Source: an uncultured Acidobacteriaceae bacterium (lineage in GTDB: Bacteria; Acidobacteriota; Terriglobia; Terriglobales; Acidobacteriaceae). Taken from it: a DNA stretch of 64,000 bases. The DNA lies in assembly GCA_963780105.1 (NCBI GenBank), contig CAWABC010000055.1, positions 3,015-67,014 on the forward strand, read 5' to 3'. Shown here piece after piece: positions 38,936 to 64,000 of this stretch. Below the pieces are notes generated by a model that did no database searches, was not told where the DNA came from, and saw nothing but the letters and a program-made list of their open reading frames with translations. How positions within the stretch are numbered: position 1 is the stretch's first letter; the number at the start of each line of letters is the position of its first letter. Position numbers and translations under genes: made by a program.

Positions 38936-38962
38936 ATCACTTTTGGTAGAATTCGTAACTTG

Positions 38963-45762: not shown

Positions 45763-47073
45763 TTGAGCCTCTGGCCGATGCTACGCTGGTACCGCTCTGG
45801 TTTTCTCGCAGGCGCCTCCGCAAGAGGATTGCAGGGAACCAATCTCAAGAAGCTGTTAAGAACAGTCGAAGCGCTGGCGGATTTGGGGCCCGAACTTACG
45901 GCAGACCGCGACTTCCGCCAAACCGCTCATGCCATGCTGTCCGCCGTGATGGAAGCGGCCGACGCGCACGAGGCCGTGCTGTTTTCGTTCGGGGAACGGC
46001 CCTCCTTGCTGACCTCGGTCGATGCGCAAGGATTCGCGCTGCTGCCGGAACCGTCGCTGATTCCCCTGCTTCCCCGCCACGTCCACACCTTGACCTCGGC
46101 CTCCGGCCCGGTGCTGCTCAATAGTTCCACGTATGACGTCTTTCTGAGTTCGAACGGCAATGTCGCGCCGGAACTGTTCAAGTGTATTTGCCCGCTGAAA
46201 GTCCGGGGAAAGCTCGCTGGGGTAATCGCCCTGGGACGACGGCCCGGCGAAGCGGTGTATGAAGAAGACGCCCTCGACGCGTTTGAAATGCTAAGTCACT
46301 ACGTGGCGCTGGCCATTCAGAACCACACTCTGGGCCAGACGCTGGCGCAACGGGTCTCTGAAAACCTGCGGCTGCTGGCCTCGCTGCACGGGTTCTACGA
46401 CAACGCGCTCGAGGCTTTCGCCGCCGCCATCGACGTCAAGCACGTCAACATTCATGGCCACTCGCTGCGAGTGGGCCGTTACTCACAGGCAATCGGCGAA
46501 GCGATGGGGATGGACCCGAACGCGGTCGCGTCCTTGCGGTCGGCGGCCTATCTGCACGACATCGGCATGGTTGCCGTCGATAAGCGGCTGCTGGGAAAAG
46601 CTGCGCGGCTCGACGCGGAGGAATCCCGCGAGATGCGGGACCACACTGTGGTCGGGCATCAGATCGTCAGCCAGGTGCAGTTTCCCTGGCCGCAGATTCC
46701 AGAAATCGTGCGCTGGCACCATGAACGGGCAGACGGGTCGGGATACCCGGACGGCTTGCATGGGGACGAAATACCGCAAGCGGTGCGCATCGTGGCCCTG
46801 GCCGAAACCTTTGACGCCATGATCAGCGAGCGTCCCTACCGCGAGCGCATGTCGGTGGGTGCGGCGCTGCAAGACTTGATCCGCATGACTCCGCAAAAAT
46901 ACGATCCCCAGGCGCTGCAGGCCTTACTGATCCAGGTGCGGCGGGATGCTGTCGGCAGCAATCGCATCCCGATGCTTGAGCCTGAAGTAATGCACCTTTC
47001 CGCCGGGGATGTGGACCAATTGGCGTCGACCTTGCAACACCGGATCAGCCAAGACAAACTCTTTCTCACCTGA
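45763..47073 (+). CDS. GAF-domain HD-GYP phosphodiesterase-type signalling protein
   Basis: 436 aa (TTG start; alternative ATG at 45778). HSLRVGRY...AAYLHDIGMVAV...HHERADGSGYPDGL is the HD-GYP motif. The N-terminal half looks like a GAF domain. Confidence 0.8.
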   Translation: MSLWPMLRWYRSGFLAGASARGLQGTNLKKLLRTVEALADLGPELTADRDFRQTAHAMLSAVMEAADAHEAVLFSFGERPSLLTSVDAQGFALLPEPSLIPLLPRHVHTLTSASGPVLLNSSTYDVFLSSNGNVAPELFKCICPLKVRGKLAGVIALGRRPGEAVYEEDALDAFEMLSHYVALAIQNHTLGQTLAQRVSENLRLLASLHGFYDNALEAFAAAIDVKHVNIHGHSLRVGRYSQAIGEAMGMDPNAVASLRSAAYLHDIGMVAVDKRLLGKAARLDAEESREMRDHTVVGHQIVSQVQFPWPQIPEIVRWHHERADGSGYPDGLHGDEIPQAVRIVALAETFDAMISERPYRERMSVGAALQDLIRMTPQKYDPQALQALLIQVRRDAVGSNRIPMLEPEVMHLSAGDVDQLASTLQHRISQDKLFLT

Positions 47074-47287
47074 AATTCTCTAGCCGAGAAACGGGGCATT
47101 GCCCCATAAACGCTAACTCAAAAATTAGTTCCGGTTTGCGCGTGACACGATCAGAATAATCGAAACTCCGCGATACGTTCCCTATTGGAATGGGCGATCA
47201 GACGGCAAGAGCCGCTCTGCGAGGGGAGTGAGGTCGGGCGGCGCTGCCCCATGAAGCCCCGGCCAGCTCGGCAGTTGCAGCGCCTTG

Positions 47288-47677
47288 TCAGACCGCAGGG
47301 AGCGCACTGATCGTAACGTAATATCCGTCCGGATCTCGGAGCGAGAACTCCTTGGTTTGAGTGTTCGGATTCACGTGTGGCTCCTCTTCGAGCCGAGTGA
47401 CGAGTGGGCGTGCCCTCTGAAGCGCCAGGTCGAAATCATCGACACGGAAGAACAACAGGAGCCCGTTGCCGGGTGTCCCGTGATCGGGGCTCATCAATGA
47501 GGGATGCTCGTGGGCGCCCCACTCGTGGAGGCAGAGCAAAACAGTTCCATCTGAATCGAGGATTTGCCCAAAGTAATCATGGGTGGGAAGGGTAGCCGGC
47601 TGACCCAACAGCGCCTGGTACCATTTGAAGCTGCCTGGCACGTCGCCTACCCCTATGATCGTCCACGTGCGCTTCAT
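47288..47677 (-). CDS. VOC (glyoxalase/bleomycin-resistance) family protein
   Basis: 129 aa. WYQALLG ... FFRVDDFD ... FSLRDPDGYYV. Confidence 0.75.
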   Translation of the reverse strand: MKRTWTIIGVGDVPGSFKWYQALLGQPATLPTHDYFGQILDSDGTVLLCLHEWGAHEHPSLMSPDHGTPGNGLLLFFRVDDFDLALQRARPLVTRLEEEPHVNPNTQTKEFSLRDPDGYYVTISALPAV

Positions 47678-48163
47678 CGGGTCCCCCTCTGCGGACTAAT
47701 TCTTGTTTAGACCGACCCGGATACAACCGGTCTTCCCAGAACTTGTCGTACTGTTTTATGCCGACAGGCGGGTCAGGCTAACCCTGCCATCGCCTAGAGA
47801 TAGATTCTCTCAGACTGGCGAATCGTCGGCAAACCGGAAGGTACCGCCCAGAAACCGGGAGGGGGAGGGGTCAACTTCTAACCCTTCCTGCTTAAGTTAG
47901 CGCTTGAGAGGGCACTGGCCCACGTCTCTTTGCACCCGGCGAACGAGAAGAAGCAAGCCGCGTCTCTACCGGAAGTCGGATACCCCTGGCTAAATTCTTC
48001 CCAGTGTAAAATTAGAAGTTCGTCCTAGCGTGCCTCATCGGGGTTCTCGAATCGCACGTAAACTAGGGGCGCGTTTGTATCAATATTGGCGGGAACATCA
48101 TCTAAGGGTCTAGACCGGGGATTTCAAGGGGCCATTGCAAGTCGATTTGCGAGGAGAGAATTG

Positions 48164-48913
48164 ATGGCTGTCAGTGACCAGTCTGTCGCCACCGGGGCCG
48201 AACTCGACCAGTTGTGTGTTAATACGATTCGCACGCTTGCAATGGACGCGGTGCAGAAGGCGAACTCGGGACATCCGGGAGCGCCGATGGGGTTGGCTCC
48301 GGTCGCCTATTGTCTGTGGCAGCAGTTTCTGCGCTATGACCCGGAAAATCCGATTTGGCCGAACCGCGACCGCTTCGTGCTTTCCAATGGGCACGCCTCC
48401 ATGCTGCTCTATTCCCTGCTGTATCTGGCGGGCGTGCGAGAAGTGAGTCCGGACGGCGGCGTTCTTTCGACGCCGGCCGTGTCGCTCGACGAGATCAAGA
48501 ATTTCCGGCAAATTGGCAGCAAGACGCCAGGGCATCCCGAATACCGATTGACCTCGGGTGTAGAGACCACCACCGGCCCGCTTGGTCAGGGCGTCGCCAA
48601 CAGCGTGGGTATGGCCATCGCCGGGCGCTGGCTGGCGGAGCACTTTAATCGTCCGGGATTCGAGCTGTTCAACTACAACGTCTGGGCGATTTGCGGCGAC
48701 GGCGACATGATGGAAGGAATTTCCTCGGAAGCCGCGTCGGTCGCCGGGCATCTTAAGCTTTCGAACCTGTGCTGGATTTACGACAACAACCACATCACCA
48801 TCGAGGGCAAAAAACGGCCGGTGGATCACCGCTTCCATCCTGACACGAGTCGACTTGCCCGCCTACACCGTGGAGGGCTACACGATGCGCGCGATCGTTT
48901 ATGGCTTCGGTGA
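48164..48913 (+). pseudogene. tkt: transketolase, N-terminal fragment only (homology ends near 48810)
   Basis: [43 protein letters not shown]...[14 protein letters not shown]...[12 protein letters not shown]...[12 protein letters not shown]. After that, no frame continues as transketolase, and the ORF tail to 48913 is non-homologous. Confidence 0.8.
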
Positions 48914-49074: not shown

Positions 49075-49155
49075 GGACTGCACGCTTCGCCGGCCCGCCA
49101 ACCGTGATAGTATTTGGGTTCGGCATCAATCCTTCATTTGCGAGGTGACTTCTTC

Positions 49156-50173
49156 ATGGCTCAGTCCAGGTTCGTTGCCGTTGCCTCCGCCTTCGCTGCG
49201 GTTCTTCTCTTCAGCTCGTGTCTCGCCGCCGCAGAATCGGTGGATGTAAAGCGCACCGATCATCAAATCGCCGTCGTCATCGGAGGCAAGCCCTTCACGA
49301 CCTTTTATTTCGATCCCAAGGTTCCCAAACCCTACATATCGCCGCTGCGCAGCGCGGAAGGGATCGTGGTGACGCGTGGCTTTCCCATGCGCAAGGACAT
49401 TCCCGGCGAGAGCACGGACCACCCACATCATCGCGCGATGTACTTCGCCCACGGGGACGTCAACGGCGTGGATTTCTGGAGCGAGGCGGAGTTTGAGGAG
49501 AAGGCCCCCGTCGAGGTTGGCGGCAAGACCTATCAAGCGTCCGAGCATCTGCCCACGGGCGGACGGTGTTCACCGAAGCTCGGAGGACACGCACAGCGGC
49601 GCGGATTCCGGAAGTCTGCGCGCCGACTTCAACCTGGTCGGCCCGGACGGCAAGATCATCGCGGAGGAGACGCAAGGCTACACGTTTCGCGGCGACGCCA
49701 CGACGCGCACCATCGATTGCGAGTTCACCATCCACGCGCTCGGCACGCCGGTGAAGATGGGCGACACGAAGGAAGGAACGTTCGCCATTCGCGTGGTCAA
49801 AGCGCTGGAAGACACGTCCGGAATGAAGATGACCGACTCCGAGGGCCGCGTGGGCGAGAAACAGATCTGGGGGAAGCGCGCCAGTTGGGTCGATTACTCC
49901 GGCACCGTCCGGGGCAAAAAGCTCGGCATCACGATCTTCGATAATCCGTCAAACCCCAAGCATCCCACTTACTGGCACGCGCGTGGTTACGGGCTGTTCG
50001 CCGTCAATCCCTTCGGCGAGCACGATTTCTACAACGACCCGAAACGCGACGGCAGCATCACCATCCCGCCCGGCGGAAATCTGACTTTCCACTATCGCGT
50101 GCTCATCCACGACGGCGACGCCAGCCAGGCGAAGGTCGCCGAAGCCTATGCCGACTACGCGGCTGGGAAGTAG
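49156..50173 (+). pseudogene. PmoA-family (DUF6807-like) secreted protein, one +1 disruption near 49561
   Basis: Frame of ORF 49114..49944 to ...YQASEHLPTG, then frame of ORF 49376..50173 from DGVHRSSEDTHSGADSGSLRADFNLVGPDGKII... Also DHPHHRAMYFAHGDVNGVDFW, GDTKEGTFAIRV and WGKRASWVDYSG. Confidence 0.65.
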
Positions 50174-50658: not shown

Positions 50659-51337
50659 ATGGCGCGGCCCGCTTTTTTCCAGAAGGTCAAGTACGAAAAA
50701 GAGCTGAAGACGTGATCTTGCCGCCGAGGTCGTCGCCACGCCCGGCGGCGAGAAGATCTTTTCCTGTCTGCAGTGCGGGACGTGCGGCAGCGCCTGCCCG
50801 CTCTCCGTGTACATGGATTACACGCCGCGGAGACTGATCGGCATGGTCCGCGAGGGCTTCAAAGAGGAAGTCGTCACCAGTTTCGCCATCTGGTCTGTGC
50901 GCTCCTGCTACGAGTGCACGGTGCGCTGCCCGGCGGGCATCAAGGTCACCGACGTCATGTATGCGCTCAAGCGGATCGCCATTCGCGAGGGGATTTACCC
51001 GCGTCATTTTCCGGTGCCGGTGCTGGCCAAGGAATTCATGGAAATGCTGAAAGGTACGGGCCGCAACAACGAGTTCTGGCTCGTCCTGAAAGTGTTGCTG
51101 AAGACCGCGCCGATGAAGTTGCTGACCTCGTGGCCGCTGGGACTGCGGCTGTGGCGGCGAGGCCGCATGTGCCTGACATCCAGCCGGATTCCCAGGGCGG
51201 CGAACGAGGATTTGCTCCGCATTCTGGACTCCATGGAGTCGAGCGGCTCCGCGAAGCGCGAAGTGATCGCCCCGGTGGCACCTTCCGCCTCCGGGGAACA
51301 ACAGGCAACCTGCTGCCCACCGGCCAAGGCTGCCTGA
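50659..51337 (+). pseudogene. hdrC: HdrC-like 4Fe-4S dicluster protein, one +1 disruption near 50713
   Basis: MARPAFFQKVKYEKELKT (the last 18 codons of ORF 50209..50715) joins DLAAEVVATPGGEKIFSCLQCGTCGSACP...SCYECTVRCPAGIKVTDVMYALKR (frame of ORF 50807..51337, read from 50716). Confidence 0.7.
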
Positions 51338-51362
51338 ACGACGGCGAGGGAGGGTCCCGACT

Positions 51363-52256
51363 ATGGCTTACACGTACTTTCCCGGCTGTTGCATGCATGG
51401 CTTCGCGCGCCACTGCCAGGACTCGCTCTATGCGGTGTTCGAGGCGCTGGGTCTGGAACTTCGGGAATTGCAAGGATTGGAATTGCTGCGGAGCCACCAC
51501 CTACATCTCGGTGGATGAATATCAGGCGTTTGCGCTTGGAGCGCGCAATCTGGCCATGGCCGAAAAGGCAGGACTGGAATTCGTGGCCCCTTGCACGGCC
51601 TGCTACATGATTCTCAAGAAGACCAAGGATTATCTGGCTCGCTACGCGGATCTGCGCGAGAAGATCGACACGGCGCTGGCCACCATAGGGCTCCACTACG
51701 AGGGCAAAATCGAAATCCTGCACCCCCTCGAGATCATTCTGCGTGATGTGGGCGTGAAAGGCCTGAAGGCCAAAGTCAAGAGACCGCTCCGGGGCTGGAA
51801 CGTCGCGCCTTATTACGGCTGCCTGATCGCACGTCCCTACGCTTTGAGCGAGGGGTTCTCACTCGAAGCCTTCGATGCGTTCATCCCGGCGTTGGGCGCG
51901 AACCTGGTGGACTTCGAGCTGAAGGCCCGCTGCTGTGGCGGCTCGCTCACGGGCACCATTGAAGAGGTTGGCCATCGGCTGGTTTACATCCTGCTCAGCC
52001 AAGCCAAGCTCGCCAGGGCGCACTGCTCTGGTTACCGTCTGCCCGCTCTGCCAGCTCAATCTGGAAGCGCATCAGGGCAAGATCAAGCGCCAGTATCACG
52101 ATGACGTCACGATTCCGATTCCGTACTTCACGCAGCTGATCGGCATGGCGCTGGGGCTATCCGGAAAAAGCCCTGGGGCTCGAGAAGCTGCTCGTGCCAC
52201 TCGACTGGGAGGTAGGGGAAAAGGCTCTTGCGGCGCGCGAGCCCGCGGCGGCCTGA
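51363..52256 (+). pseudogene. hdrB: HdrB-like protein with two CCG domains; +1 disruptions near 51469, 52015, 52160
   Basis: MAYTYFPGCCMHG...ELQ | DWNCCGATTYISVDEY...APYYGCLIARP...KARCCGGSL... | ALVTVCPLCQLNLEAHQ...IPYFTQLIGMALGL | PEKALGLEKLLVPLDWEVGEKALAAREPAAA*. GAGGGAGG lies upstream of the ATG. Confidence 0.75.
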
Positions 52257-52284
52257 GGGCCGGGGCCGTGGAAAGGAGTTGACG

Positions 52285-53494
52285 ATGGGCACAGCTCCGT
52301 ATCCGGGGACGCCCGAAGCCACGGCGGTTTTCCCCGAGATCGCCAATCTCGCCGGACCTCTTTCGCACTTGCATCCAGTGTGGGGTGTGCAGCGGATCGT
52401 GTCCGATGGGCGAGGCGATGGATTTCTCACCGCGCAAAGCGGTGAAGATGTTTCTGACGGCCGGGTTGAGGAGGTCGTGGACAGCAACACCCCGTGGCTC
52501 TGTGTTTCGTGCCACACCTGCGCGGTGCGATGCCCCAGTCAACTGCTTATTTCCGATGGGCTTGTTCCCCGCTCTGCGTCCGCGGTGATGGCGGAGGGCA
52601 AGGACGCTCGAGCAGGATCTGCAGAAGGCTCTCCAGAACACTTACCTCTACGGCAATCCGATGGGGATACTCGCCGCAAGCAAGCGGACGGAGTGGACCA
52701 AGACGGCCGGAGTGCCCGTCCCCATCATCTCGCAACTGAAGCGGCCGGTGGATGTCCTTTGGATCGTGGAGTGTTACCCCTCCTTCGAGCCGCGCGGACC
52801 AGGAGATCTCCCGCAACTGCTGGCGCGCATTCTGAACGCGCTGGGCGTGGACTTCGCCATTCTTGGGCACGAGGAGCGATGCCTGGGCGACTGCGAGTGG
52901 CTGGCCGGGGAGCGCGGCCTCTTCGAGATGCTCATTGAGCGAAACATCGAGATCCTGAAGAAGTACCAGTTCAAAGAAATTCTCATGACGGACCCGCACT
53001 CTTACCGCACGCTGTTGAATATCTACCCGAAGCTGGGCGGCAAGTTCGTGGTGAAGCACTTCACGGCCTTTCTGGCCGAGCGGCTCGAGCAGCTCAAGCC
53101 TCTTCTCAAGAAACGGGTCAACGGCACGGTGACCTATCACGATTCCTGCTGCGTGGGGAGGAAGACGGGCCATTACGACGAACCGCGCGCCGTGCTCCAG
53201 GCGATCCCCGGTTTGAAACTCGTCGAGATGATTCAGAACCGGGAGTCGAGCCTGTGCTGCGGCGGCGGTGCCAGCACGATCTATCTCGACCGTTACATCC
53301 AGGAGCGCGTCAAGGATCGCCTGGCGGACCGGCGGGTGATGCAGGCAGCGGCGACGGGCGCGGAGACACTTGCGGTAGCGTGCCCCTTCGAGACCGCGCG
53401 CTTCGAAGACGCCGTCAAGCTGACCGGGAACGAGGAAAAGCTCGTCGTTCGCGACATCATCGAACTGTTGGCCGAGTCCATGGAAGTCGCCTGA
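52285..53494 (+). pseudogene. soluble HdrD/GlpC-like fusion (4Fe-4S dicluster + CCG domains); disruptions near 52352 (+1), 52465 (-1), 52601 (+1), possibly a compensated pair near 52545/52580
   Basis: MGTAPYPGTPEATAVFPEIANLA | PDLFRTCIQCGVCSGSCPMGEAMDFSPRKAVKMFLTAG | EEVVDSNTPWLCVSCHTCAVRCPSQ ... AVMAEGK | TLEQDLQKALQNTYLYGNPMG...TYHDSCCVGRK...SSLCCGGG...ACPFETARFEDA (ORF 52661..53494). GGAAAGGAG RBS. Confidence 0.7.
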
Positions 53495-53508
53495 GGGAGG
53501 ACGGGGCC

Positions 53509-54279
53509 ATGAATATCGCGGTGCTGACCAAGCAGGTTCCCGACCTTGTCGAGGGTGTGGAGATCGATTCCACCGGCAAGGCCGTCGATCCCGATTCCAT
53601 TCGCTACATCCTCAGCGAATCGGACGACCACGCCCTCGAAGAAGCCGTACTCATCAAGGAGCGGACGCAGGCCCGCGTAGAAGTGTTCTCCCTCGATACC
53701 GGTGAGGTGCGCGACACGCTGTGCACGGCGCTCGCCAAGGGGGCTGACCGCGTCGTCCTGATCCGCACGGGGCTGGAGACCCCGCCGAGCAATCACACCG
53801 TGGCGAAAATCTTCGCCTCCGTGCTCCAGGGACTTTCCTTCGACCTGATCTTGACCGGAGTCCGCGCCATCGATGACCTGGACGGCTCGCTCGGCGGGCT
53901 GCTCGCCGGATATCTCAACCTGCCTTACGTCGGCTTGGTGCGCAAGATTGAAATGGCGGACGGCACATCGATGGCGGTCGTCCAGAAGGAATACCCGGGC
54001 GGCTACGCGGCGGAACTGGAAGTGAAGCTCCCGGCAGTGCTGGGCATCCAGGCGGCAGAGCAGCCGCCGCGCTACGTCCCCGTCAGCCGTCTGCGCCAGG
54101 TGATGAAGACGGCAAACATCGAGGAGAAGGAAACCACCGCGCCCGAGCCGGAATCTGTCGCCGTCGAGCGCATGTTCAAGCCCGAGGAAGGCATGGGAGC
54201 CACGATGTTCTCCGGGACCCCCGAAGAGATCGCCAGCCAGATCGTCGGCCTGTTCTCAGAACGACGGCTCGTGAGGTGA
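53509..54279 (+). CDS. etfB: electron transfer flavoprotein beta subunit (intact)
   Basis: MNIAVLTKQVPDLVEGVEIDSTGKAVDPDSIRYILSESDDHALEEAVLIKER...DLILTGVRAIDDLDG. GGGAGGA RBS. Confidence 0.9.
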   Translation: MNIAVLTKQVPDLVEGVEIDSTGKAVDPDSIRYILSESDDHALEEAVLIKERTQARVEVFSLDTGEVRDTLCTALAKGADRVVLIRTGLETPPSNHTVAKIFASVLQGLSFDLILTGVRAIDDLDGSLGGLLAGYLNLPYVGLVRKIEMADGTSMAVVQKEYPGGYAAELEVKLPAVLGIQAAEQPPRYVPVSRLRQVMKTANIEEKETTAPEPESVAVERMFKPEEGMGATMFSGTPEEIASQIVGLFSERRLVR

Positions 54280-54282
54280 CGT

Positions 54283-55269
54283 ATGGGCAAGGACATTTGG
54301 GTTGTCGCCGAGCACTTCCAGGGACGCCTGAACGACATCACCCTGGAGCTGGTTGCGAAAGGGCGCGAGCTGGCTCAGGCCACGGAGTCGAAACTCGCTG
54401 TGGTCTTGCTGGGCAGCAAGGTGAAGGGCCTGGCGAGTGAGCTCGCCGCGGATATCGTTTACCTCGCGGATCGCCCGGAGTTCCTCGAGTTTACCCCGGA
54501 GGCTTACGGTGCGGCGCTAGAGGCCGCATTAAAGGATGTCCAACCGCGTGCGGTTCTGCTGGGCAGCACCTCGGTGGGACTTGACCTGCTCAGCATGCTT
54601 TCGGCACGGACGGGCATTCCCTGCATTGACAACTGCACACGCCTGGAAGTCCGTGGTGGCCACTTCTTCGCCACCAGCCAGATCTATGGCGGAAAGCTCT
54701 CGGCCGAAGTGGCGGTGCCGGAAGCGACAGCTCTTATCGCCGTGGTTCCCGGTTCGTTCCCCAAGCCTGAGACCGCGGCGGCCGGGCGGCCGGAGGTTCA
54801 GGACATCCCGCTGCCGGCGACACTCCCCGAACTGCGGGTCAAGTTCCGCAAACTGATCGAACCACCTCCCGGCGACGTGGACATCACTCTAGCACCCGTG
54901 CTGGTCGCCGTTGGCCGGGGCATTCAGAACGCCGACAACCTGCCCATGGCCGAGGAGCTGGCTGAAGCGTTGGGTGGCGCGGTCTGTGCCTCGCGTCCCG
55001 TCATCGATCAGGGGTGGCTGCCGCTCACCCGCCAAGTCGGCAAATCGGGCATGACCGTCAAGCCGAAGCTCTATCTTGCCTTCGGCATCAGCGGCGCTCC
55101 GGAACACTTGGAGGGCATGAAGAATTCCGAGTTGATTGTCGCCGTCAACACCGACCCGAGTGCGCCAATCTTCGCCGGCGCGCACTATGGCGCGGTCGTC
55201 GACGCGCTCGATCTCCTGCCCTTGCTGACCGAGGAGGTCCGCAAGGAGAACATGAAGAAGGCAAGCTGA
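54283..55269 (+). CDS. etfA: electron transfer flavoprotein alpha subunit (intact)
   Basis: 328 aa. ...LVAVGRGI...AEALGGAVCASRPVIDQGWLPLTRQVGKSGMTVKPKLYLAFGISGAPEHLEGMKNSELIVAVNTDPSAPIF is the FAD-binding signature. Confidence 0.9.
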   Translation: MGKDIWVVAEHFQGRLNDITLELVAKGRELAQATESKLAVVLLGSKVKGLASELAADIVYLADRPEFLEFTPEAYGAALEAALKDVQPRAVLLGSTSVGLDLLSMLSARTGIPCIDNCTRLEVRGGHFFATSQIYGGKLSAEVAVPEATALIAVVPGSFPKPETAAAGRPEVQDIPLPATLPELRVKFRKLIEPPPGDVDITLAPVLVAVGRGIQNADNLPMAEELAEALGGAVCASRPVIDQGWLPLTRQVGKSGMTVKPKLYLAFGISGAPEHLEGMKNSELIVAVNTDPSAPIFAGAHYGAVVDALDLLPLLTEEVRKENMKKAS

Positions 55270-57323
55270 TGATCCCGACCACCGCGAAACTCGGGCCGAT
55301 TCCCGCGTGGGTGCTCCTTTGGGCGGTTTTTCTCACCGCGCTCGGACTCTTTGCGTGGCGGGTGGTCTTCCTGATCCGGCTGCTTCGCCTCGGCCGGCGG
55401 GACAGGCGCTGGGACCAGATCCCCCGGAGGATCAGGAAGGTTCTCATCTACGTCCTCGGCCAGCGTCGCTTGCTCGATGAGCCGCTGGTGGGCATTCCCC
55501 ACGTTCTCATCTTCTACGGCTTTCTGGTCTTCGTGATGGCCACCAGCGGAATGCTGCTCCAAGGACTTTTCCCCGGCGTTCATATCCCCGGCGTGGAAGA
55601 GAATCGTTATCTCGCTCCAGTTGTGGATATCTTCGCCGTGGTGGTGCTGGGAGGCTTGGCTGTTTCTTCCTTCCGACGCTTCGTGATCCGCCCGGCGGGC
55701 CTGCAACTGACTTGGGACGCGACTTTCGTGAACATCCTGATCGCGTCGCTCATGGTGACGTATCTCGCCGCGGAGGGGTTCGGCCTCGTGGCGTGGCCGG
55801 GGGAACACGCGGTGTGGCTCCCCTTCGGCTCCGGCCTGGCGGCTTGGTTCGGGCGCTCGGCAACACTGCACGCGAGTGCCCCTGCGCTCTACCAAGGTTT
55901 CTGGTGGGCGCATTTGAGCATCGTGCTGTTCTTCCTGGCTTACCTCCCTTACTCGAAGCATATGCACCTGATGGCTGCGCCCTTCAGCGTGTTTTTCAGC
56001 CGGCTCGACCCTCCGGGACGCCTGCCTACTCCCCTGCCGGAAGCCAGCAGTCTGGGCGCCGAGCGCCTCGAGGAGTTCACTTGGCGACAACTGCTCTCTG
56101 CTTTCGCCTGCGCGGAGTGCGGGCGTTGCGAACGCGCCTGCCCGAGCTTCCAGGTCGGCGAACCCTGCTCACCGCGTGAACTCGTCCACAACCTCAAGCT
56201 GCAGTTGCTCCAGCACGGCCCCGCGCTACTTAAGAAGATGGAATCCGCGAGCAACGTCGGGGAACCCACGTTGATTGGCGGCCTGATCGCACCCGAGGAA
56301 CTCTGGGGTTGCACGACCTGCCTTTCCTGCGTCGAGCACTGCCCCGTCCTGAACGAGCACCTCTCGATCATGGTGGACCTGCGCCGACGGCTGGTGGAGC
56401 GCGGGGAAGTGGACGCGCGTCTTCAGGAAGCGTTCAGCAACCTCCAGCGCTACGGCAATTCCTTCGGCCAGTCGGAGCGGAAGCGCGCGGTGTGGACGCA
56501 AGGGCTGGACTTCAAGCCGACGGACGCGCGTAAGCAGCCGGTCGAGTGGCTTTGGTTCCTGGGAGAGTACGCCTGCTACCACCCGGCACTTCAGGAAACT
56601 ACTCGCACGCTCGCCCGCGTGCTGCACGCGGCCGACGTGGATTACGGAATCCTCTACGAGGCGGAGCGCAACACCGGCAACGACGCGCGCCGCGCCGGCG
56701 AAGAGGGCTTGTTCGAGCTGCTGCGCGAGAAAAACATGGCGACGCTCCAGAAAGTCCAGCTTCAACAACTTGTTCTCCACCGATCCGCACGTCTTTAACA
56801 CGCTGAAGAATGAATATCCGGATCTCAATCACGGACGGCATCAGGTCCATCATTACACGGAGTTGCTGGCCGGGCTCTCTGGAGCGCGGGCGGCTCAAAG
56901 TCGCGCACAAGCTGCCCTACCGGGTGACCTATCACGACCCGTGCTACCTGGGCCGCTACAACGGCGTCTACGACGCCCCGCGCCAAGTGCTCAGGGCGTT
57001 GGGAGTGGACTTGAAGGAAATGCCGCGCTCGCGCCGCGACAGCTTCTGCTGCGGCGGAGGCGGCGGGCGCGTGTGGATGGAAGAAATCGGCGAGGCGCAC
57101 TCGCGCCCCGGCGAAAGCCGGGTGCGTGAGGCGGCCAGCGCTGCAGGGAGTCCAGATCCTGGTGGTGGCCTGTCCGAAGGATTACGTGATGTTCGCGGAC
57201 GCGCTCAAGACCACCGGCCTGGAAGGCCATTTGGTCGTCAAGGATTTGACCGAGTTGGTGGCGGAAGCCGTGGGGCTGACCGATCAGGCCGCAAAATCCG
57301 CCTCCGAGGCGAAGGCCGCATGA
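55269..57323 (+). pseudogene. membrane-anchored FeS oxidoreductase (N-terminal multi-TM domain fused to an HdrD-like dicluster + CCG domains; Etf-associated DUF224 type); +1 disruptions near 56760, 56878, 57140
   Basis: The ATG overlaps the etfA stop (TGATG). There are 5-6 TM helices ending in LPYSKHMHLMAAP. Then CAECGRCERACP and CTTCLSCVEHCP. The sequence continues | [39 protein letters not shown] | [35 protein letters not shown]...[16 protein letters not shown]...RVREAAS | [23 protein letters not shown]...*. Confidence 0.75.
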
Positions 57324-57327
57324 GCTT

Positions 57328-57463
57328 GTCACCCTGAGCGCCGCGAAGTCTCTGCAGTTGCTTGGGGGAGGACTAGAAGCAGGTTCTTCGCGGAGTTTAC
57401 CCTGAGCGGGAACCACAGATTCTTCGCTCCGCTCAGAATGACAAGCGAAGGGCTCAGAATGAC
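57328..57463. repeat. degenerate, nested copies of REP family 1 inside the cluster
   Basis: GTCACCCTGAGCGCCGCGAAG..., ...TTACCCTGAGCGGG...GCTCCGCTCAGAATGAC and AAGGGCTCAGAATGAC. These are related to the GTCATCCTGAGCGAAGCGAAGGACC arms of copies A and B. Confidence 0.6.
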
Positions 57464-57517
57464 AGTGAAGAAAGGGAAGAGCAGAGCGGGCTAACTGCAC
57501 GGAGAGAGGACACAGCC

Positions 57518-59515
57518 ATGAACGGCAACGGGAACCACAACGCGAGGATCGGAGTTTACGTTTGCCATTGCGGAACGAACATCGCCGGCAAGGTGGACGT
57601 GAAGGCCGTGGCGGAGGCGGCCGCCAAGCTTCCCGGCGTGGTCGTTTCGCGCGAGTACAAGTACATGTGCTCGGACCCGGGACAGGATCTCATCGTCAAG
57701 GACGTCAAGGAACACCAGCTGAATCGCGTGGTGGTAGCCTCCTGCTCGCCGCACCTGCACGAGCTGACGTTCCGCAAGACGACGGCGAATGCCGGGCATA
57801 AACCCTTACCTCTTCCACATGGTGAACATTCGCGAGCACGTCTCCTGGGTGAGCGACGACACGGTGGCGGCCACGAAGAAATCCAAGGCCCTGGTCAAGG
57901 CCGCGGTGACCCGCGCGTTCTGGCTTCAGGAACTGGAGCCTCGGCGCTTCCCGGTGAATCCCAACGTGCTCATCGTGGGCGGCGGGATCGCGGGCATCCA
58001 TGCCGCGCTGACCCTGGCCAACGCCGAGCAAGCAGGTTTACCTCGTCGAGCGCCAGCCGTCGATCGGCGGCCATATGGCGCAGTTCGACAAGACGTTTCC
58101 CACGCTCGACTGCGCGGCCTGCATCCTCACGCCCAAGATGACCGCCGTGAAGCAGCATCCCAACATCCATCTCATGACGCTCTCCGAGGTCAGCGAGGTG
58201 AGCGGCTTTGTGGGGAACTTCAAAGTCAAGGTGAAAAGATACCCGCGCTACATCGACGAGGCCAAATGCGTGGGCTGCGGCGAGTGCATCGAGATGTGCG
58301 TCTACAAGGAGGGAAAGTATCCGAACGAATTTGATCTGGGGCTGGGCAAACGCAAGCCCATTTACATGCCTTTCCCGCAGGCGGTGCCCCCCGTGCCGCT
58401 GATCGACCCCGCCACCTGCATCGAGTTCAAGTCGCACAAGTGCCCGAAGGGGTGCGTGGAGGTCTGCGGCGATCGCGATGCCATCGACTTCTCGCAGAAG
58501 GTGCAGGAGGTCGAATTGGAAGTCGGCACCATCATCATGGCGACCGGCTTCAAGACCTTCGATCCGCACCGCTTGCCGCAATACGGCTACGGGAAGTTTT
58601 CCAACGTTTACACGAGCCTGGAGGTCGAGCGCTTGGTCAATGCCTGCGGGCCCGACGCTCGGTCAGGTCGTGATGCGCGACGGCAAGAAGCCGCGAGTCC
58701 ATCGGCGTCCTGCACTGCATCGGCTCACGCGACGAGAACACCAACAAATACTGCTCGCGCGTCTGCTGCATGTATTCGCTGAAGCTCGCGCACCTGCTCA
58801 AGGAAAAGACCGGCGCGCACCTCTACAACTTCTATATCGACATGCGCACGCCCGGGAAAGGCTTCGAGGAATTCTACAAGCGCGTGCTCGAGGAAGGTGT
58901 TTCGATGATCCGCGGCAAGGTGGCGGAAGTGAGCGGCTGGGCGCAGTCGCCCGCGGAGGAAGGCAAGCTCGTCCTGCGCGTGGAAGACACGCTGCTCGGC
59001 GTCGTGCGGCGCATTCCGGTGGACATGGTGGTGCTCTCGGTCGCGCATGGAACCGCAGGCGGACGTCGCAGGAAGTGCGGCGCCTGTTCAACCTCGGCTG
59101 CTCGACCGAGGGGTGGTTCCTGGAGCGCCATCCCAAGCTCGCGCCCGTGGATACGTTCACGGACGGCATCTTCCTGGCCGGATGCAACCAGGGGCCCAAG
59201 GACATTCCCGACACGGTGGCCCAGGCGGGCGCCGCCGCGGCGCAGTGCATGGCGCTCATCGACAAGGGCTTCGTCGAAATGGAGCCCAACACCGCCTGGA
59301 TCGATGAGGAACTCTGCTCCGGCTGCCACGTCTGCGTCGCGATGTGCCCGTACACCGCCATTCATTTCGATAGCGAGAAGAAAGTCGCCGTTCTGAACGA
59401 AGCGCTCTGCAAAGGTTGCGGAACGTGCGTCGCCGCCTGCCCCTCGGGCGCCGCGCAGCAGAATCTCTTCCGGGATGAGCAGCTCTTCGCCGAAGTGGAA
59501 GGAGTGCTGGTATGA
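57518..59515 (+). pseudogene. hdrA: heterodisulfide reductase subunit A-like flavoprotein; six +1 disruptions near 57796, 58027, 58654, 58694, 59046, 59072
   Basis: [17 protein letters not shown]...[18 protein letters not shown]...NAG | [17 protein letters not shown]...[20 protein letters not shown] | [37 protein letters not shown]...CVGCGECIEMC...ERLVNACGP | TLGQVVMRDGKKP | ESIGVLHCIGSRDENTNKYCSRVCCMYSLK...VVLSVA | MEPQADVA | EVRRLFNLG...GIFLAGCNQGPKDIPDTVAQ...CSGCHVCVAMCPY...CKGCGTCVAACPSG. Confidence 0.85.
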
Positions 59516-59950
59516 ACACGAAATTCAACCCCTCCATCGTCGGTTTCTTCTGCAACTGGTGCACCTACCTCGCCGCCGATCTCGCGGGCACCTCGCGCAT
59601 GAAGTACGCGCCCAACGTGCGCGTCGTGCGCACCATGTGCTCGGGACGCGTGGACCCGCAGATGGTCCTGTGGGCCTTTCGCAACGGCGCCGACGGCGTG
59701 CTGATCGGCGGCTGCCATCCCGGCGATTGCCATTATCAGGAAGGAAACTACAAGGCGCTGCGGCGCACGCGCCTGCTCCGCAAGATGCTGCCGCAGTTCG
59801 GCATCGAGCCGGAGCGCCTGCGGCTGGAATGGATTTCCGCCTCCGAGGGCGAGCGCCTGCGCGACGTTGTCAATGAATTCACGGAGCAGATTCGCCGCCT
59901 CGGGCCGCTGCCGTGCGGAGCCGGCGAAGGAAGAGGCGATTGCCGCGTAA
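59512..59950 (+). pseudogene. mvhD: MvhD/FlpD-type hydrogenase delta subunit; probable +1 disruption near 59913
   Basis: ATGA overlap with the hdrA stop. IVGFFCNWCTYLAADLAG...RTMCSGRVDPQMVLWAFRNGADGVLIGGCHPGDCHY. The proposed end ...LGPLP | AEPAKEEAIAA* (stop 59948-59950) is less certain. As sequenced, the frame reads through into mvhG. Confidence 0.7.
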
Positions 59951-60042
59951 CGATTTCAGCCTGTAGCGGGGGTCTCCGACCGCCGCCACGGCCCGGCGCT
60001 CAGAGAGCGCCGCTACAGAGCAAGGGAAGGAGCCAAGGAACC

Positions 60043-61019
60043 ATGGCCAAACCCAAAGTGGCGTTTTACTGGTGCGCAAGCTGCGGCGGCTGCGAAGAGG
60101 CCGTCGTCGATCTCGCCGAAGGACATCCTGAAGGTCGTGGAGGCCGTGGACATCGTCTTCTGGCCGGTGGCGCTCGACTTCAAGCGCTCCGATGTCGAGG
60201 CGATGGCCGGACGGCGAAATCGCCGTCGCTTTCATCAACGGCGCGGTTCGCATCGAGCGAGCAGGAAGCGATGGCCAAGCTGCTGCGCCGGAAGTCGGGA
60301 CTGGTCATTGCCTACGGCGCCTGCGCCTACCTAGGGGGGCATTCCCGGCCTCGCCAACCTGACGGACAAGGAGGCGATCCTGGAATTACGTCTACCACCT
60401 CTCGCCCTCGACAACCAACGGCACCGGCGTGCGCCCGCAGACGCACTTCCAGGTTCCCGAGGGCGAACTGGAGTTGCCGGAGTTCTACGAGACCGTCAAG
60501 ACGCTCGATCAGGTCATCGACGTCGACTACTACCTTCCCGGCTGCCCGCCTACGCCGAAGATCACGCTTGCAGGCGATCGAGGCCATTCTGAGCGGGAAG
60601 CTGCCTGAAAAGGGCTCGGTGCTCGCGGGCGACCGCGCGCTCTGCTACGAGTGCGACTTGAACTCCACCAAGCCCGAGAAGCTGCTGGTCACGGAATTGA
60701 AGCGGCCGCACCAGGTGCTTGATCGACCGCGAGAAATGCCTGCTGGCGCAGGGGATTCTCTGCCTGGGCCCCGTCACGCGCGGCGGCTGCGAGGCGCTGT
60801 GCGTCAAGGGCGGCATGCCCTGCACCGGCTGCTTCGGGCCGCTCGAACGCGTGCGCGACTACGGCGGCAAGGCGCTTTCGGCCATCGCCTCCATCGTGGA
60901 TTCCACCGACGAGACAGGTCATCGCCAAGGTTTTCGAAGCCGTCCCCGATCCGGCGGGGACGTTCTATCGGTACAGCGTGCCGGCATCGTTGCTGGCCGG
61001 AAAGCGCAAAGCTGCATAG
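60043..61019 (+). pseudogene. mvhG: [NiFe] hydrogenase small subunit (MvhG-like); eight +1 disruptions near 60120, 60209, 60258, 60338, 60383, 60570, 60717, 60914
   Basis: AAGGGAAGGAG RBS. MAKPKVAFYWCASCGGCEEAVVDLAE | DILKVVEAVDIVFWPVALDFKRSDVEAMA | DGEIAVAFINGAVRIE | EQEAMAKLLRRKSGLVIAYGACAYLGG | IPGLANLTDKEAIL | NYVYHLSP...DYYLPGCPPTPKITL | QAIEAILSGKLPEKG...KRPHQV | LIDREKCLLAQGILCLGPVTRGGCEALCVKGGMPCTGCFGP...STDE | QVIAKVFEAVPDPAGTFYRYSVPASLLAGKRKAA*. Confidence 0.8.
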
Positions 61020-61028
61020 AGGTGCGTC

Positions 61029-62501
61029 ATGGCTCAGAGAATCACGATTGATCCCATCACCCGGCTGGAAGGCCACGGCAAGATCGAGATCTTTCTCGAC
61101 GACAGCTGGCAAGGTGAGCCGCGCCTACTTCCAGGTGCCGGAGTTGCGCGGCTTCGAGCAGTTCGTCGTCGGACGGCCCGCCGAGGAGATGCCGCAGATC
61201 ACCTCGCGCATCTGCGGCGTTTGTCCCACGGCGCATCACATGGCGAGCCACCAAGGCGCTGGACGATCTTTACCAGGTCGATCCGCCGCCCGTCGCCAAG
61301 AAGCTGCGGGAGATGATCTACAGCATCTTCATGCTCGAAGACCACGCGCTGCACTTCTACTTCCTGGGCGGGCCGGATTTCGTCGTCGGGCCCAAGGCCC
61401 CCAAGGCCGAGCGCAACATCCTGGGCGTGCTCGGCAAGGTCGGCGTGGAAGTGGGCAAGCGGGTCATCGGCATGCGCAAAGAATTGCGCGACCTGATCAG
61501 CCTGCCTGGGCGGCAAGGTGATTCACCCGGTGTTCGGCTTGCCGGGTGGCGTTGCCAAGCCCCTGGCACCGGCCGATCAGCCGAAGTTCATCGAGGCGGC
61601 CAAGCGCGGCGTGGATTTTGCCCTGTTCACGCTGACCGTTTTTGACCAGAGTCGTCCTGAAAAACAAGGAATACGTGGACGCGATCACCTCGGAGATGTA
61701 CACGCACCGCACCTATTACATGGGCTTGGTGGACGAGCAAGAACCGCGTCAACTTCTACGACGGCCGTATTCGCGTCGTCGACCCGCAGGGCAAGGAGTT
61801 TGGCGTCTTCACGGCGCGCGAGTATCTGGACTCGATCGCCGAGCACGTCGAGCCGTGGAGCTACATCAAGTTTCCGTATTTGAAGAAGATCGGCTGGAAG
61901 GGTTTCGTGGATGGGCGCGGATTCGGGCATCTTCAGCGTGGCGCCGCTGGCGCGACTGAACGCCGCGGACGGCATGGCCACCCGCGCGCCCACGAGGCCT
62001 ACGAGCAGCTCTTCGCCACGCTGGGCGGCAAGCCCGTGCACCACACGCTGGCCTTCCACTGGGCGCGGGTCGTGGAAATGATCTATGCGGCGGAGCGATT
62101 CCTCGAGCTCGCGAGCGATCCGGAGATCGTCGACCCGAACGTTCGCGACGCTGCCCACCGCGCGTTCCCAAGGTCGGCATGGGCGTGGTGGAAGCGCCGC
62201 GCGGCACGCTCTTCCATCACTACGAGACCGACGAGGCGGGCGTGATCACCGCGCGCCAACCTCATCGTCGCCACGCAGAACAACGCCGCGCGCATCGCCC
62301 TTTCCGTGGACAAGGCGGCGACGGGCGCTGATCAATGCCACGACGGCCAACGACGACGGCCTGCTCAACATGGTGGAGATGGCCTTCCGCGCCTACGACC
62401 CTTGCCACGGCTGCGGCACGCACTCGCTGCCCGGGTCGATGCCGCTCAAGATTTCGATTCGCGACGCAGAGGGCCGTCTGATTCGGGAGATCTCGAGGTA
62501 G
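61029..62501 (+). pseudogene. mvhA: [NiFe] hydrogenase large subunit (MvhA-like); about ten disruptions near 61107, 61249, 61504, 61650, 61741, 61919 (+1 each), 61982 (-1), 62140-62165 (net -1 or two +1), 62254, 62321 (+1 each)
   Basis: MAQRITIDPITRLEGHGKIEIFLDDS | GKVSRAYFQVPELRGFEQFVVGRPAEEMPQITSRICGVCPTAHHMAS | TKALDDLYQV...FMLEDHALHFYFLGGPDF... | LGGKVIHPVFGLPGGVAK... | VVLKNKEY... | NRVNFYDGRIRVVDPQGKEF... | DSGIFSVAPLARLNAADGMAT | PRAHEAYEQLF... VGMGVVEAPRGTLFHHYETDEAGVIT | ANLIVATQNNAARIA... | ALINAT...MVEMAFRAYDPCHGCGTHSLPG...*. Confidence 0.85.
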
Positions 62502-62565
62502 GGAGTAACGATTCCTTTTCTCCTTGAGGCCTGCCGGGGTAGGCCGCGACCGCGACGCAAAAGAC

Positions 62566-63051
62566 ATGCCTGAATCGACGCAGTCCATTCTCGTACTGGG
62601 ACTCGGCAACGACCTGCTGAAAGACGATGCCGTGGGGATTCGCGTCGCGGAGAGACTTCAGGGGACTTTCGGGGAAGACGTCGAGGTCCGTTCGACCTCG
62701 CTCTTTGGATTGTCGCTGCTGGATGAGTTGCTAGGCCGTGAGAAGGCGCTGTTAATCGACAGCTACCTTCCGGAGGAGTTTGTCGGGTCGGAGATTCAGG
62801 AGCGCAACCTTGATTCGGTCGGCGAAGCCTGCGGCGTCTCTCCCCACTTCGTCGGCTTGGGCGAAGTGCGCAACGTCATGCGAAAGCTTGGCCTCGGCTT
62901 TCCCCACGAGGTGCGCATCCTGGCCATCCCCGTCTCCGACCCGACGACTTTCTCCACCGAGATGACCCCTGCCGTCGCCGCCCTCGTCGACGAAGCCGCC
63001 GCCCGCGCCCGCCGGATCGTCGAGGCGTGGCTCCCCGTCAGCGCTCGCTAG
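62566..63051 (+). CDS. hydrogenase maturation endopeptidase (HycI/FrhD/HoxW type), intact
   Basis: The ATG at 62566 gives MPESTQSILVLGLGNDLLKDDAVGIRVAERL (GxGNxxxxDDxxG). A later motif is SPHFVGLGEV (His). Confidence 0.8.
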   Translation: MPESTQSILVLGLGNDLLKDDAVGIRVAERLQGTFGEDVEVRSTSLFGLSLLDELLGREKALLIDSYLPEEFVGSEIQERNLDSVGEACGVSPHFVGLGEVRNVMRKLGLGFPHEVRILAIPVSDPTTFSTEMTPAVAALVDEAAARARRIVEAWLPVSAR

Positions 63052-63107: not shown

Positions 63108-64000
63108 ATGAGCCGAAGAGCCGAACCAATTCTTCTTTCTGAACAGGAGCGTAGCACCTTGCGAGCGTGGGCCAGAGCCAGAAGCCAGCCGCAGCGCCTC
63201 GTTCAGCGGGCCCAGATCATCCTGCTGGCCGCCGAGGGAGTCGAGAACCAGGAGATCGCCCGCCGCGTGCATGCCTCGCGACCGACGGTGCAACTCTGGC
63301 GTGGGCGGTTTCTGGCCCTGCGCACCGCCGGTTTGGAGAAGGACGCTCCTCGTCCCGGCCGCATCCCGGCCATCAGCGACCGGAAGAGGGCGGCGATTGT
63401 GGAAGCGACGCTGCACCGCCAACCGTCCAACGCTACCCACTGGAGTAGCCGGTTGATGGCCAAAGCGCAAGGCGTCAGCGAAGCGACCGTGCGGCGAATC
63501 TGGAGGCAGCACAGCTTGAGGCCGCACCGCCTGTCGACGTTCAAGGTAAGTCGCGATCCCCGGTTCGTGGAAAAGCTCACCGAGGTCGTGGGCCTTTATC
63601 TCAACCCGCCCGATAAGGCGCTGGTGCTGTGCGTGGATGAAAAGAGCCAGATTCAAGCTCTCGACCGCACCCAACCGGGTCTGCCGCTGCGACCCGGCCG
63701 CTGCGGCACGATGACGCACGACTACACGCGCCACGGCACCACCACCTTGTTCGCAGCTCTCTCGACCCTCGATGGCGCCGTCATCGGGGACTGCATGCCG
63801 CAGCACCGGCATCAGGAATTCACCCGCTTCCTCAAGCGCATCGATCAGCAGACACCCAGCGGACTGGACTTGCACCTCATCGTGGATAACTACGCGACCC
63901 ACAAGCATCCTGGTGTCGAGCGTTGGTTGCGCCGCCACCCGCGCTTTCACCTGCACTTTACTCCCACGTCCTGTTCCTGGCTCAATTTGGTCGAACGCTG
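63108..64000 (+). mobile_element. IS630-family transposase gene (3' end runs off the window)
   Basis: Own translation from the ATG at 63108: MSRRAEPILLSEQERSTLRAWARARSQPQRLVQRAQIILLAAEGVENQEIARRV...THWSSRLMAKAQGVSEATVRRIWRQHSLRPHR...LVLCVDEKSQIQALDRTQP...HLIVDNYATHKHPGVERWLRRHPRFHLHFTPTSCSWLNLVER. It shows the HTH plus DDE pattern of IS630/Tc1-like transposases. It is absent from the ORF track because there is no stop in the window. Confidence 0.85.

Follow-up and report, generated by a model that had tools for sequence, protein, structure and literature searches.

A conserved acidobacterial gene cluster combining an MvhADG-HdrABC-type hydrogenase set with an HdrB3-EtfAB-EMO module

Eleven genes related to hydrogenases, heterodisulfide reductases (Hdr) and electron-transferring flavoproteins (Etf) follow one another on the plus strand of a 64,000-nucleotide (nt) stretch of DNA from an uncultured Acidobacteriaceae bacterium (assembly GCA_963780105.1, contig CAWABC010000055.1; henceforth the window, meaning the whole stretch, whose positions serve as coordinates). 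An original prediction, made from the sequence alone, had read them as hdrC, hdrB, a gene for a soluble fusion protein (here B3), etfB, etfA, a gene for a membrane-bound Fe-S oxidoreductase (here emo), hdrA, mvhD, mvhG, mvhA and a hydrogenase endopeptidase gene. Pfam, NCBIfam and PDB searches confirm this order on one strand. Between 50.6 and 62.5 kb, the listing of open reading frames (ORFs) on the plus strand shows many short frames. In the record whole ORFs remain for three genes, namely etfB, etfA and the protease gene, whereas the other eight are broken by about 37 frameshifts, nearly all of them single-base insertions. Gene identities were assigned with Pfam on stop-free segments and with NCBIfam and PDB searches on frame-corrected proteins, which were rebuilt in two ways, by a codon-usage Viterbi decoder with ±1 shifts and by a protein-to-DNA aligner tolerating frameshifts. 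Pfam domains on the stop-free segments run in the order Fer4 dicluster, CCG, Fer4 plus CCG, ETF, ETF plus ETF_alpha, and a hydrophobic domain followed by Fer4 and CCG, and thereafter FAD/Fer4 (HdrA-like), FlpD, Oxidored_q6 and NiFeSe_Hases, with profile coordinates that continue through the frame changes. Breaks were placed against two references. For the left half this was L001, a short-read contig of a Terriglobia metagenome-assembled genome (MAG) with 85 % nucleotide identity and all genes intact; for the right part it was L050, a short-read contig with 88 % identity and intact emo, hdrA, mvhD, mvhG, mvhA and protease ORFs. The features of the cluster are:

50659-51337, plus strand: hdrC-like gene with two [4Fe-4S] motifs (Pfam Fer4_8; NCBIfam HdrC TIGR03290, E 2e-22); 1-nt insertion at about 50710, and possibly another near 51287, relative to the L001 homologue, which is intact
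51363-52256, plus strand: hdrB-like gene with two complete CCG motifs (Pfam CCG; NCBIfam HdrB TIGR03288, E 2e-51); against intact L001, 1-nt insertions at about 51472, 52027 and 52163
52285-53494, plus strand: B3, a soluble HdrC+HdrB fusion (sHdrB3/HdrD-like; Pfam Fer4, CCG); about three frameshifts between 52348 and 52603
53509-54279, plus strand: etfB, intact ORF (Pfam ETF)
54283-55269, plus strand: etfA, intact ORF (Pfam ETF and ETF_alpha; PDB matches CarE, LctC and others, E 1e-55)
55269-57323, plus strand: emo, an etfD-like membrane Fe-S oxidoreductase gene (PDB 9OJN_A, mycobacterial EtfD, E 8e-87); 1-nt insertions at about 56750-56760, 56870-56879 and 57135
57324-57517, no strand: emo-hdrA spacer of 194 nt with a 36-nt imperfect inverted repeat (57324-57359 / 57411-57446)
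57518-59515, plus strand: hdrA, a full-length methanogen-type flavoprotein of 663 aa (NCBIfam HdrA2, 845 bits); against L050, six 1-nt insertions at 57796, 58027, 58654, 58693, 59044 and 59072
59512-59950, plus strand: mvhD (FlpD; Pfam FlpD, E 3.6e-54; NCBIfam VhuD); one insertion at about 59910
60043-61019, plus strand: mvhG, hydrogenase small subunit (Pfam Oxidored_q6; NCBIfam VhuG, E 2e-57, 194 bits); against L050, eight 1-nt insertions
61029-62501, plus strand: mvhA, group 3 [NiFe]-hydrogenase large subunit by sequence (NCBIfam VhuA, 399 bits); against L050, about 10 insertions and 1 deletion
62566-63051, plus strand: hydrogenase maturation endopeptidase-like gene, intact ORF (homology to the L106 gene in the same position)

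Two predicted start/stop overlaps are present: TGATG at 55267-55271 joins the stop of etfA to the start of emo, and ATGA at 59512-59515 the stop of hdrA to the start of mvhD. The accompanying claim of short spacers holds for most of the cluster (-4 to 28 nt, the latter between hdrB and B3) and fails for the emo-hdrA, mvhD-mvhG and mvhA-protease intervals of 194, 92 and 64 nt. A GGAGG-like site lies upstream of most starts; a promoter and terminator scan gave a result no better than shuffled sequence, and Rfam and tRNA scans of the window returned no matches. Relatives likewise have a gap of 75-200 nt between emo and hdrA. The inverted repeat in this spacer (57324-57446) is 78 % complementary and resembles a repetitive extragenic palindromic (REP) element, and the short direct repeats GCTCAGAATGACA and ACCCTGAGCG each occur twice. 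No Pfam model matches the product of the last gene, which is 34 % identical (E 8e-24) to that of the same-position gene of L106, a contig of a Candidatus (Ca.) Sulfotelmatobacter MAG; the L106 product matches PF01750 (HycI), and homologues come after mvhA in many loci.

The frame-corrected MvhA carries both ligand motifs, RICGVC (residue 60) and DPCHGCGTH (residue 456), and its VhuA score compares with at most 160 bits for other NCBIfam hydrogenase models. Its PDB matches include 7T2R_D, MvhA itself (5ODC_F) at E 2e-105 and HoxH at E 2e-90; group 3 chains span E 1e-90 to 1e-113, and group 1 enzymes reach E 1e-37 or weaker. By these sequence comparisons the large subunit belongs to group 3 and appears MvhA/VhuA-like and group 3c-like, the margin being modest (357-371 bits for 3c chains vs 307 bits for 3d). 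The original prediction had left room for an enzyme outside group 3; with VhuA/MvhA as the best match, its primary assignment stands. Residues 9-662 of HdrA align with residues 12-653 of 8RVU_a and 4-649 of 5ODC_A (E ~1e-216), so that the N-terminal, flavin adenine dinucleotide (FAD), inserted-ferredoxin and C-terminal ferredoxin domains of a full-length HdrA are all present, whereas the short sHdrA 6TJR covers only residues 315-578. HdrB matches methanogen HdrB (8RVU_b and 5ODC_B, E ~1e-37) over its full length, shares 92 % amino-acid identity with the intact L001 gene product and, after frame correction, retains both of the CCG motifs predicted for it. HdrC has its two [4Fe-4S] motifs, and MvhD is encoded beside HdrA; intact reading frames are missing from the set in this record.

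In hydrogenotrophic methanogens, MvhADG-HdrABC is an electron-bifurcating complex that couples H2 to the heterodisulfide of coenzymes M and B (CoM-S-S-CoB) and to ferredoxin. All six subunit types of that complex (PDB 5ODC, 8RVU) are likewise encoded here, with an HdrA that aligns from end to end, a full-length HdrB with both CCG motifs, MvhA, MvhG and MvhD that score best on Vhu/Mvh models, and the hdrA-mvhD stop/start overlap. The acidobacterial locus differs in that its host is a bacterium in which a CoM/CoB pathway is not in evidence (the window showed no genes of methanogenesis), and in that B3, etfB, etfA and emo stand between hdrCB and hdrA, hdrCB often being non-adjacent in relatives. 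Because the host is bacterial, with no CoM/CoB evidence, and hdrCB is set apart or non-adjacent, the high-potential acceptor is probably something other than a CoM-type heterodisulfide.

The genes inserted between hdrCB and hdrA encode a second recognizable module. EMO consists of an N-terminal multi-pass membrane domain, in which hydrophobic segments were found, followed by a dicluster and CCG domains; residues 14-345 and 401-724 of 9OJN_A align to its residues 20-325 and 337-649. The protein unites a membrane domain with an HdrCB-like Fe-S domain, its gene lies beside etfAB, and it is assigned by homology to the EtfD/EMO family of Etf:menaquinone oxidoreductase (EMO) type, in agreement with the original prediction. 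Members of this family have been characterised biochemically and structurally in other systems (PMC13083937), and an 'HdrF'-etfAB pairing has been noted in Desulfobacterium autotrophicum (PMC2702500). Both domains of the mycobacterial protein (9OJN; PMC13083937) align, and emo is coupled directly to etfA, whereas no beta-oxidation genes lie near the cluster and the first CCG region reads ERNTGND where EtfD has ETCTGDS, one Cys fewer. Compared with the ordinary EMO clade, which is found beside divergent etfAB, the window EMO is just 33-39 % identical. B3 combines two CxxCxxCxxxC motifs with CCG domains and matches the soluble part of EtfD in the PDB (E 3e-42). In both EMO and B3 the last CCG motif ends in CP(K/F)(D/E) rather than CPxC (EMO reads CPKD), and their Fe-S cluster complement may differ from that of EtfD and HdrB. 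The PDB chain closest to EtfB is the non-bifurcating ETF beta subunit of M. methylotrophus (1O94_C, E 8e-33); this ETF, which binds adenosine monophosphate, scores 117 bits against at most 76 bits for bifurcating ETFs, while EtfA scores about equally against both kinds. The cluster contains no fixCX or bcd genes. Since EtfB is closest to a non-bifurcating ETF, the candidate bifurcating flavin is that of HdrA.

Metagenome contigs were scanned with the corrected EMO, yielding 79 loci onto which all corrected proteins were mapped. The loci fall into group 1 (37 loci, EMO identity of at least 50 %) and group 2 (42 loci, 28-39 %), and synteny was counted only on contigs that reach far enough. In group 1, etfA lies upstream of emo in 26/26 and B3 in 16/16 contigs, and hdrA lies downstream in 34/35, the exception ending in an emo-hdrC variant; mvhD (21/21) and mvhA (13/13) likewise follow downstream. 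Group 2 has an ordinary emo with divergent etfAB and no hdr or mvh genes (0/42). This strict synteny supports the proposal that the Hdr, Etf and Mvh modules belong together. Complete eleven-gene copies occur in L029, L055, L032 and L059, and L022 has the gene order of the window. Other loci vary the arrangement: L023 reads hdrA-mvhD…A-hycI-etfBA-emo-B3-hdrA-mvhDGA, L024, a 4.37-Mb contig, reads hycI-hdrCBA-x-B3-etfBA-emo-hdrA-mvhDGA, and both L106 and L107 read B3-etfBA-emo-hdrA-mvhDGA-hycI, followed by a gene for a cyclic nucleotide monophosphate (cNMP)-binding protein. The position of hdrCB is variable (upstream, in the emo/hdrA gap, in the mvhG/mvhA gap, or not adjacent), and the conserved core is the nine genes B3-etfBA-emo-hdrA-mvhDGA-protease. 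When flank ORFs from 25 loci were clustered, the sole conserved neighbours were hyp genes, a PmoA-like gene and an alcohol dehydrogenase-like gene; hyp maturation genes come after the cluster in a more distant clade. The original prediction had allowed for synteny restricted to this contig or created by joining two loci. The cluster is neither confined to the contig nor an assembly join, because the same order recurs in 37 independent short-read contigs and in L001, L022-L024 and L106/L107.

Several loci show further combinations. In L023 (1-15200), L024 (1-14944) and L039 (4942-17709), two hdrA-mvh sets or an extra hdrCBA flank the Etf module, and L032 and L043 carry a second, distant [NiFe] hydrogenase upstream. 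L017 and L019, from Ca. Methanolliviera, have genes for a dicluster-CCG protein, etfB, etfA, hdrA, hdrC and hdrB in a row, with no mvh genes; these loci are another Etf-Hdr linkage, in alkane-degrading archaea.

The closest described system comes from sulfur oxidisers. Type II sHdr clusters have the order shdrC1B1AHB3-etfAB-emo, and it has been suggested that their EtfAB and EMO form an electron route to menaquinone (PMC4378227, PMC11094781). A genome scan with EtfA returned loci at 43-54 % identity in Sulfobacillus, Calditrichota, Bacteroidota, Chloroflexota, Planctomycetota and others, in which an HdrA-like gene lies upstream of [dicluster-CCG]-etfB-etfA-[membrane dicluster-CCG]. In Sulfobacillus benefaciens (L010), genes for a 228-aa dicluster protein, a 399-aa CCG protein, a 372-aa flavoprotein and a 236-aa protein without Pfam match precede those for a 427-aa dicluster+CCG protein, etfB, etfA and emo, which is the published type II sHdr order. 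The B3-etfAB-emo block, with hdrC/hdrB-type genes before it, is common to these loci and the window; B3 is 46-53 % (53 % to L010) and EtfA 48-54 % identical. In contrast to type II sHdr, the short sHdrA (about 350-370 aa) and sHdrH are absent from the window, where hdrB runs straight to B3 and a 663-aa HdrA, MvhDGA and the maturation protease follow emo; nor is the window HdrB close to the sHdrB1 of those loci. By sequence, the acidobacterial cluster thus resembles a type II sHdr cluster in which sHdrA/sHdrH have been replaced by HdrA-MvhDGA, and it combines two known kinds of system, Mvh-Hdr and the type II sHdr Etf/EMO module. The exact gene order did not turn up as described in a literature search, in keeping with the statement of the original prediction that no characterised example was known, although it may have been mentioned before. 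The Ca. Sulfotelmatobacter paper mentions just 'group 3 hydrogenases', up-regulated under anoxia (PMC6018796).

We therefore read the locus, with moderate confidence, as a real operon-like unit, conserved in Terriglobia and related soil and peat Acidobacteriota, in which a complete MvhADG-HdrABC-type bifurcating hydrogenase set is genetically wired to an HdrB3-EtfAB-EMO module. By analogy with its relatives, it probably serves flavin-based electron bifurcation or confurcation linked to H2, with ferredoxin on one side and menaquinone (via B3-Etf-EMO) and/or a disulfide on the other. As in the solved Mvh-Hdr complex, H2 would be oxidised at MvhA and its electrons passed via MvhG and MvhD to the HdrA flavin; at the HdrA FAD the pair would be split, the low-potential electron going to ferredoxin. 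The high-potential electron would exit via the HdrC-like dicluster carrier, along one branch to HdrB and then a putative disulfide, along the other, modelled on the type II sHdr proposal, through HdrB3 and EtfAB to the membrane EMO/EtfD-like protein and menaquinone. In reverse wiring, confurcation would combine electrons from Etf or menaquinol with those of reduced ferredoxin to form H2. We infer all of these steps, working from subunit identities, cofactor motifs and a tight co-inheritance that are observed. From textbook values we estimate potentials of about -74 mV for menaquinone and about -450 to -500 mV for ferredoxin, and a mean acceptor potential of about -280 mV; on these figures it is plausible in thermodynamic terms that electrons from H2 are bifurcated, or that they are confurcated to H2 when its pressure is low. 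A comparable logic, in which exergonic menaquinone reduction drives ferredoxin reduction, operates in EtfABCX/FixABCX, which bifurcates electrons from reduced nicotinamide adenine dinucleotide to menaquinone and ferredoxin (PMC9304861). Here, in contrast, FixC and FixX are absent, EtfB is of the non-bifurcating-like kind, HdrA would hold the bifurcating flavin and H2 would act as donor. On a more tentative note, the products might form a hitherto undescribed supercomplex or tightly coupled pathway, MvhADG-HdrA-(HdrBC/HdrB3)-EtfAB-EMO, that splits the electrons of H2 between ferredoxin and membrane menaquinone, or confurcates them in reverse to H2; we regard this as a serious possibility that falls short of an expectation. 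The functional idea of the original prediction, a single assembly linking H2, Etf, the quinone pool and a low-potential acceptor, is reasonable as a hypothesis.

Several observations weigh against this reading. An interaction between Mvh/Hdr and B3/Etf/EMO is putative, and the 194-nt emo-hdrA spacer could part two transcription units. Only 5 of the 14 contigs with enough upstream sequence have hdrCB adjoining the cluster. EtfB resembles a non-bifurcating ETF, and treating Etf as a simple carrier is an assumption.

The alternative that survives best is that two functionally separate systems are merely adjacent: an ordinary bacterial MvhADG-HdrABC acting on ferredoxin and a thiol/disulfide would stand beside EtfAB-EMO with a soluble HdrD-like partner that serves a dehydrogenase-to-menaquinone route, their co-localisation reflecting shared regulation under anoxia and not a shared electron path. 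The emo-hdrA spacer with its inverted repeat would suit such a division, as would the hdrCBA that stands alone in Bryobacteraceae (L025, L026) and the 42 loci with plain emo-etfAB pairs. Yet the EMO clade of at least 50 % identity was never found without hdrA-mvhDGA downstream, the arrangement outlives rearrangements (L023, L039, L044, L057/58), and the flanks hold neither a conserved acyl-CoA dehydrogenase nor any other conserved Etf donor. B3, moreover, is an HdrC-HdrB fusion, a kind of protein thought to dock onto an HdrA-type flavoprotein in type II sHdr (PMC11094781). We consider such a separation unlikely, if still the strongest competitor.

A sulfur-metabolising variant of type II sHdr is improbable. 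B3/HdrB would then act on a protein-bound persulfide or a (lipo)disulfide, with the hydrogenase giving or removing electrons, for instance when H2 drives the reduction of sulfane or when H2 is released as sulfur is oxidised. The shared B3-etfBA-emo module (PMC11094781) and the presence of the cluster in Ca. Sulfotelmatobacter, whose lineage has genes of dissimilatory sulfur metabolism (PMC6018796), speak for it, but the defining short sHdrA and sHdrH are absent, HdrA being of the 663-aa methanogen type, and no LbpA, TusA or DsrE-like ORF was conserved in the flanks of the long loci, a search that covered those flanks only and was not exhaustive.

The broken frames bear on whether the cluster is alive in this strain. 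Left of etfB, comparison with L001 gives uncompensated single-base insertions in hdrC, hdrB and the B3-like gene. Between 56.3 and 63.05 kb, comparison with L050 gives 28 single-base insertions and 1 deletion, every event being 1 nt; the inserted base is G or C in 24/28 cases, and only 10/29 events lie next to the same base. After frame correction no in-frame stop is left in ~10 kb. The ratio of nonsynonymous to synonymous substitution rates (dN/dS) against L001 is 0.20 for hdrC, 0.056 for hdrB, 0.16 for B3 and 0.12 for emo, next to 0.11 and 0.135 for the intact etfB and etfA. L021, a Logan short-read contig that is 99.3 % identical over window positions 53272-57088 and encodes an identical EtfA, lacks both insertions within its span (56758, 56879), and the frames are intact in the relatives L001, L029, L050, L055 and L106. 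Given the insertion-only spectrum, the lack of nonsense codons, the unchanged selective constraint and L021, the ~37 frameshifts are very probably consensus errors in a long-read-type contig and not biological inactivation. A uniform error model does not account for everything, which counts against us: the frameshifts fall in 48.9-52.8 kb and 56.75-62.4 kb, most densely in mvhG/mvhA (~1 per 100 nt), and leave 52.8-56.75 kb and 1-48.8 kb clean, a clean 3.9-kb stretch (52813-56750) having a probability of ~4e-5 under that model. This clean stretch roughly matches the span of L021.

That the array is decaying into pseudogenes in this strain, inactivated beside the insertion sequence (IS) element with only etfBA kept, is highly improbable: 8 of 11 genes are frame-broken in the public record, where the NCBI/ENA entry P0170 is a truncated emo call, the damage is bounded by a junction at 48.82 kb on one side and the IS630 transposase on the other, and etfB and etfA are spared, but the 28:1 excess of 1-nt insertions is an unnatural mutation spectrum, the ~10 kb of corrected frame hold no nonsense codon, dN/dS is not raised, and the near-identical L021 lacks the insertions that it covers. 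That all hdr and mvh genes are dead, a possibility named in the original prediction, is very improbable: the corrected frames are stop-free, and the broken genes hdrC, hdrB, B3 and emo have dN/dS like that of the intact etf genes.

Similar local frame damage affects L022-L024, long-read-style contigs of one ENA series; it is a quality problem common to that assembly series and a further sign that the frameshifts of the window are artefacts. Selenocysteine read-through of the split hdrA in L023 and L024 was considered and is ruled out by a compensated frameshift in L024 (11150-11300) and by a TAG in L023 (11294-11296) where relatives have a conserved Glu codon. The seemingly intact mvhA ORF of L023 holds an out-of-frame stretch; L023 was hence unfit as a frameshift reference, and L050 was used. 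P0170, probably the truncated emo product of this very record, is a 509-aa fragment, 99 % identical, encoded on a 67,204-nt NCBI/ENA contig; it ends where the window ORF ends, which places the errors in the public record. Such frame damage should not count as gene loss.

The surroundings of the cluster hold four further features:

38960-39787: MqnA/D-family gene
41029-42087: MqnC/CofH radical S-adenosylmethionine (SAM) gene
48158-48835: N-terminal transketolase fragment (Pfam profile positions 2-190 of 334)
63186-64000, plus strand: IS630-type transposase gene (helix-turn-helix and DDE_3), cut off by the edge of the window; a neighbour of the cluster that does not belong to it

At ~48.82 kb (48813-48840) the transketolase fragment directly borders the final 86 codons of a gene whose L001 counterpart has 715 aa. 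The error-rich block starts exactly there, and so does the synteny with L001 and L055. Tetranucleotide composition differs only mildly between the two sides (0.94 vs 0.96-0.97). Stretches that differ in coverage or polishing may have been joined here; a contig end that is chimeric or poorly covered might explain the junction, as might a genuine rearrangement. The original prediction had placed mqnA/C/D and the cluster in one genome. The window does contain MqnA/D-family and MqnC/CofH genes, but because of the junction their linkage to the cluster is not secure from the window alone. Upstream of the transketolase fragment, ~1.1 kb (47073-48158) has no convincing ORF on either strand and no Rfam or tRNA match. 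A PmoA-like (DUF6807-type) gene at 49147-50173, upstream of the cluster, is syntenic in L001, L052 and L055, and its region has indels at 48929, 49555 and 49580. The IS element noted beside the cluster in the original prediction is the IS630-type transposase from ~63186. Next after the protease gene, relatives have a cNMP-binding (Crp/Fnr-like) gene (L022 14874-15329, L106 17622-18089, L107 15727-16194), and the transposase occupies its position in the window.

The acidobacterial cluster bears on the question of what a bacterial Mvh-Hdr reduces in organisms without CoM and CoB. It also ties the type II sHdr module of sulfur oxidisers evolutionarily to hydrogenase-coupled Hdr. Etf, EMO and menaquinone are the high-potential outlet to which its strictly conserved gene context points, a hypothesis that is testable in the Acidobacteriota abundant in peat and sediment, Ca. 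Sulfotelmatobacter among them. If this holds true, the bacterial 'orphan' Mvh-Hdr would gain a quinone rather than a heterodisulfide as its high-potential partner. The host could then obtain reduced ferredoxin from low H2 or, with the route reversed, dispose of quinol and Etf electrons as H2 under anoxia, which would bear on carbon and hydrogen cycling in wetlands.

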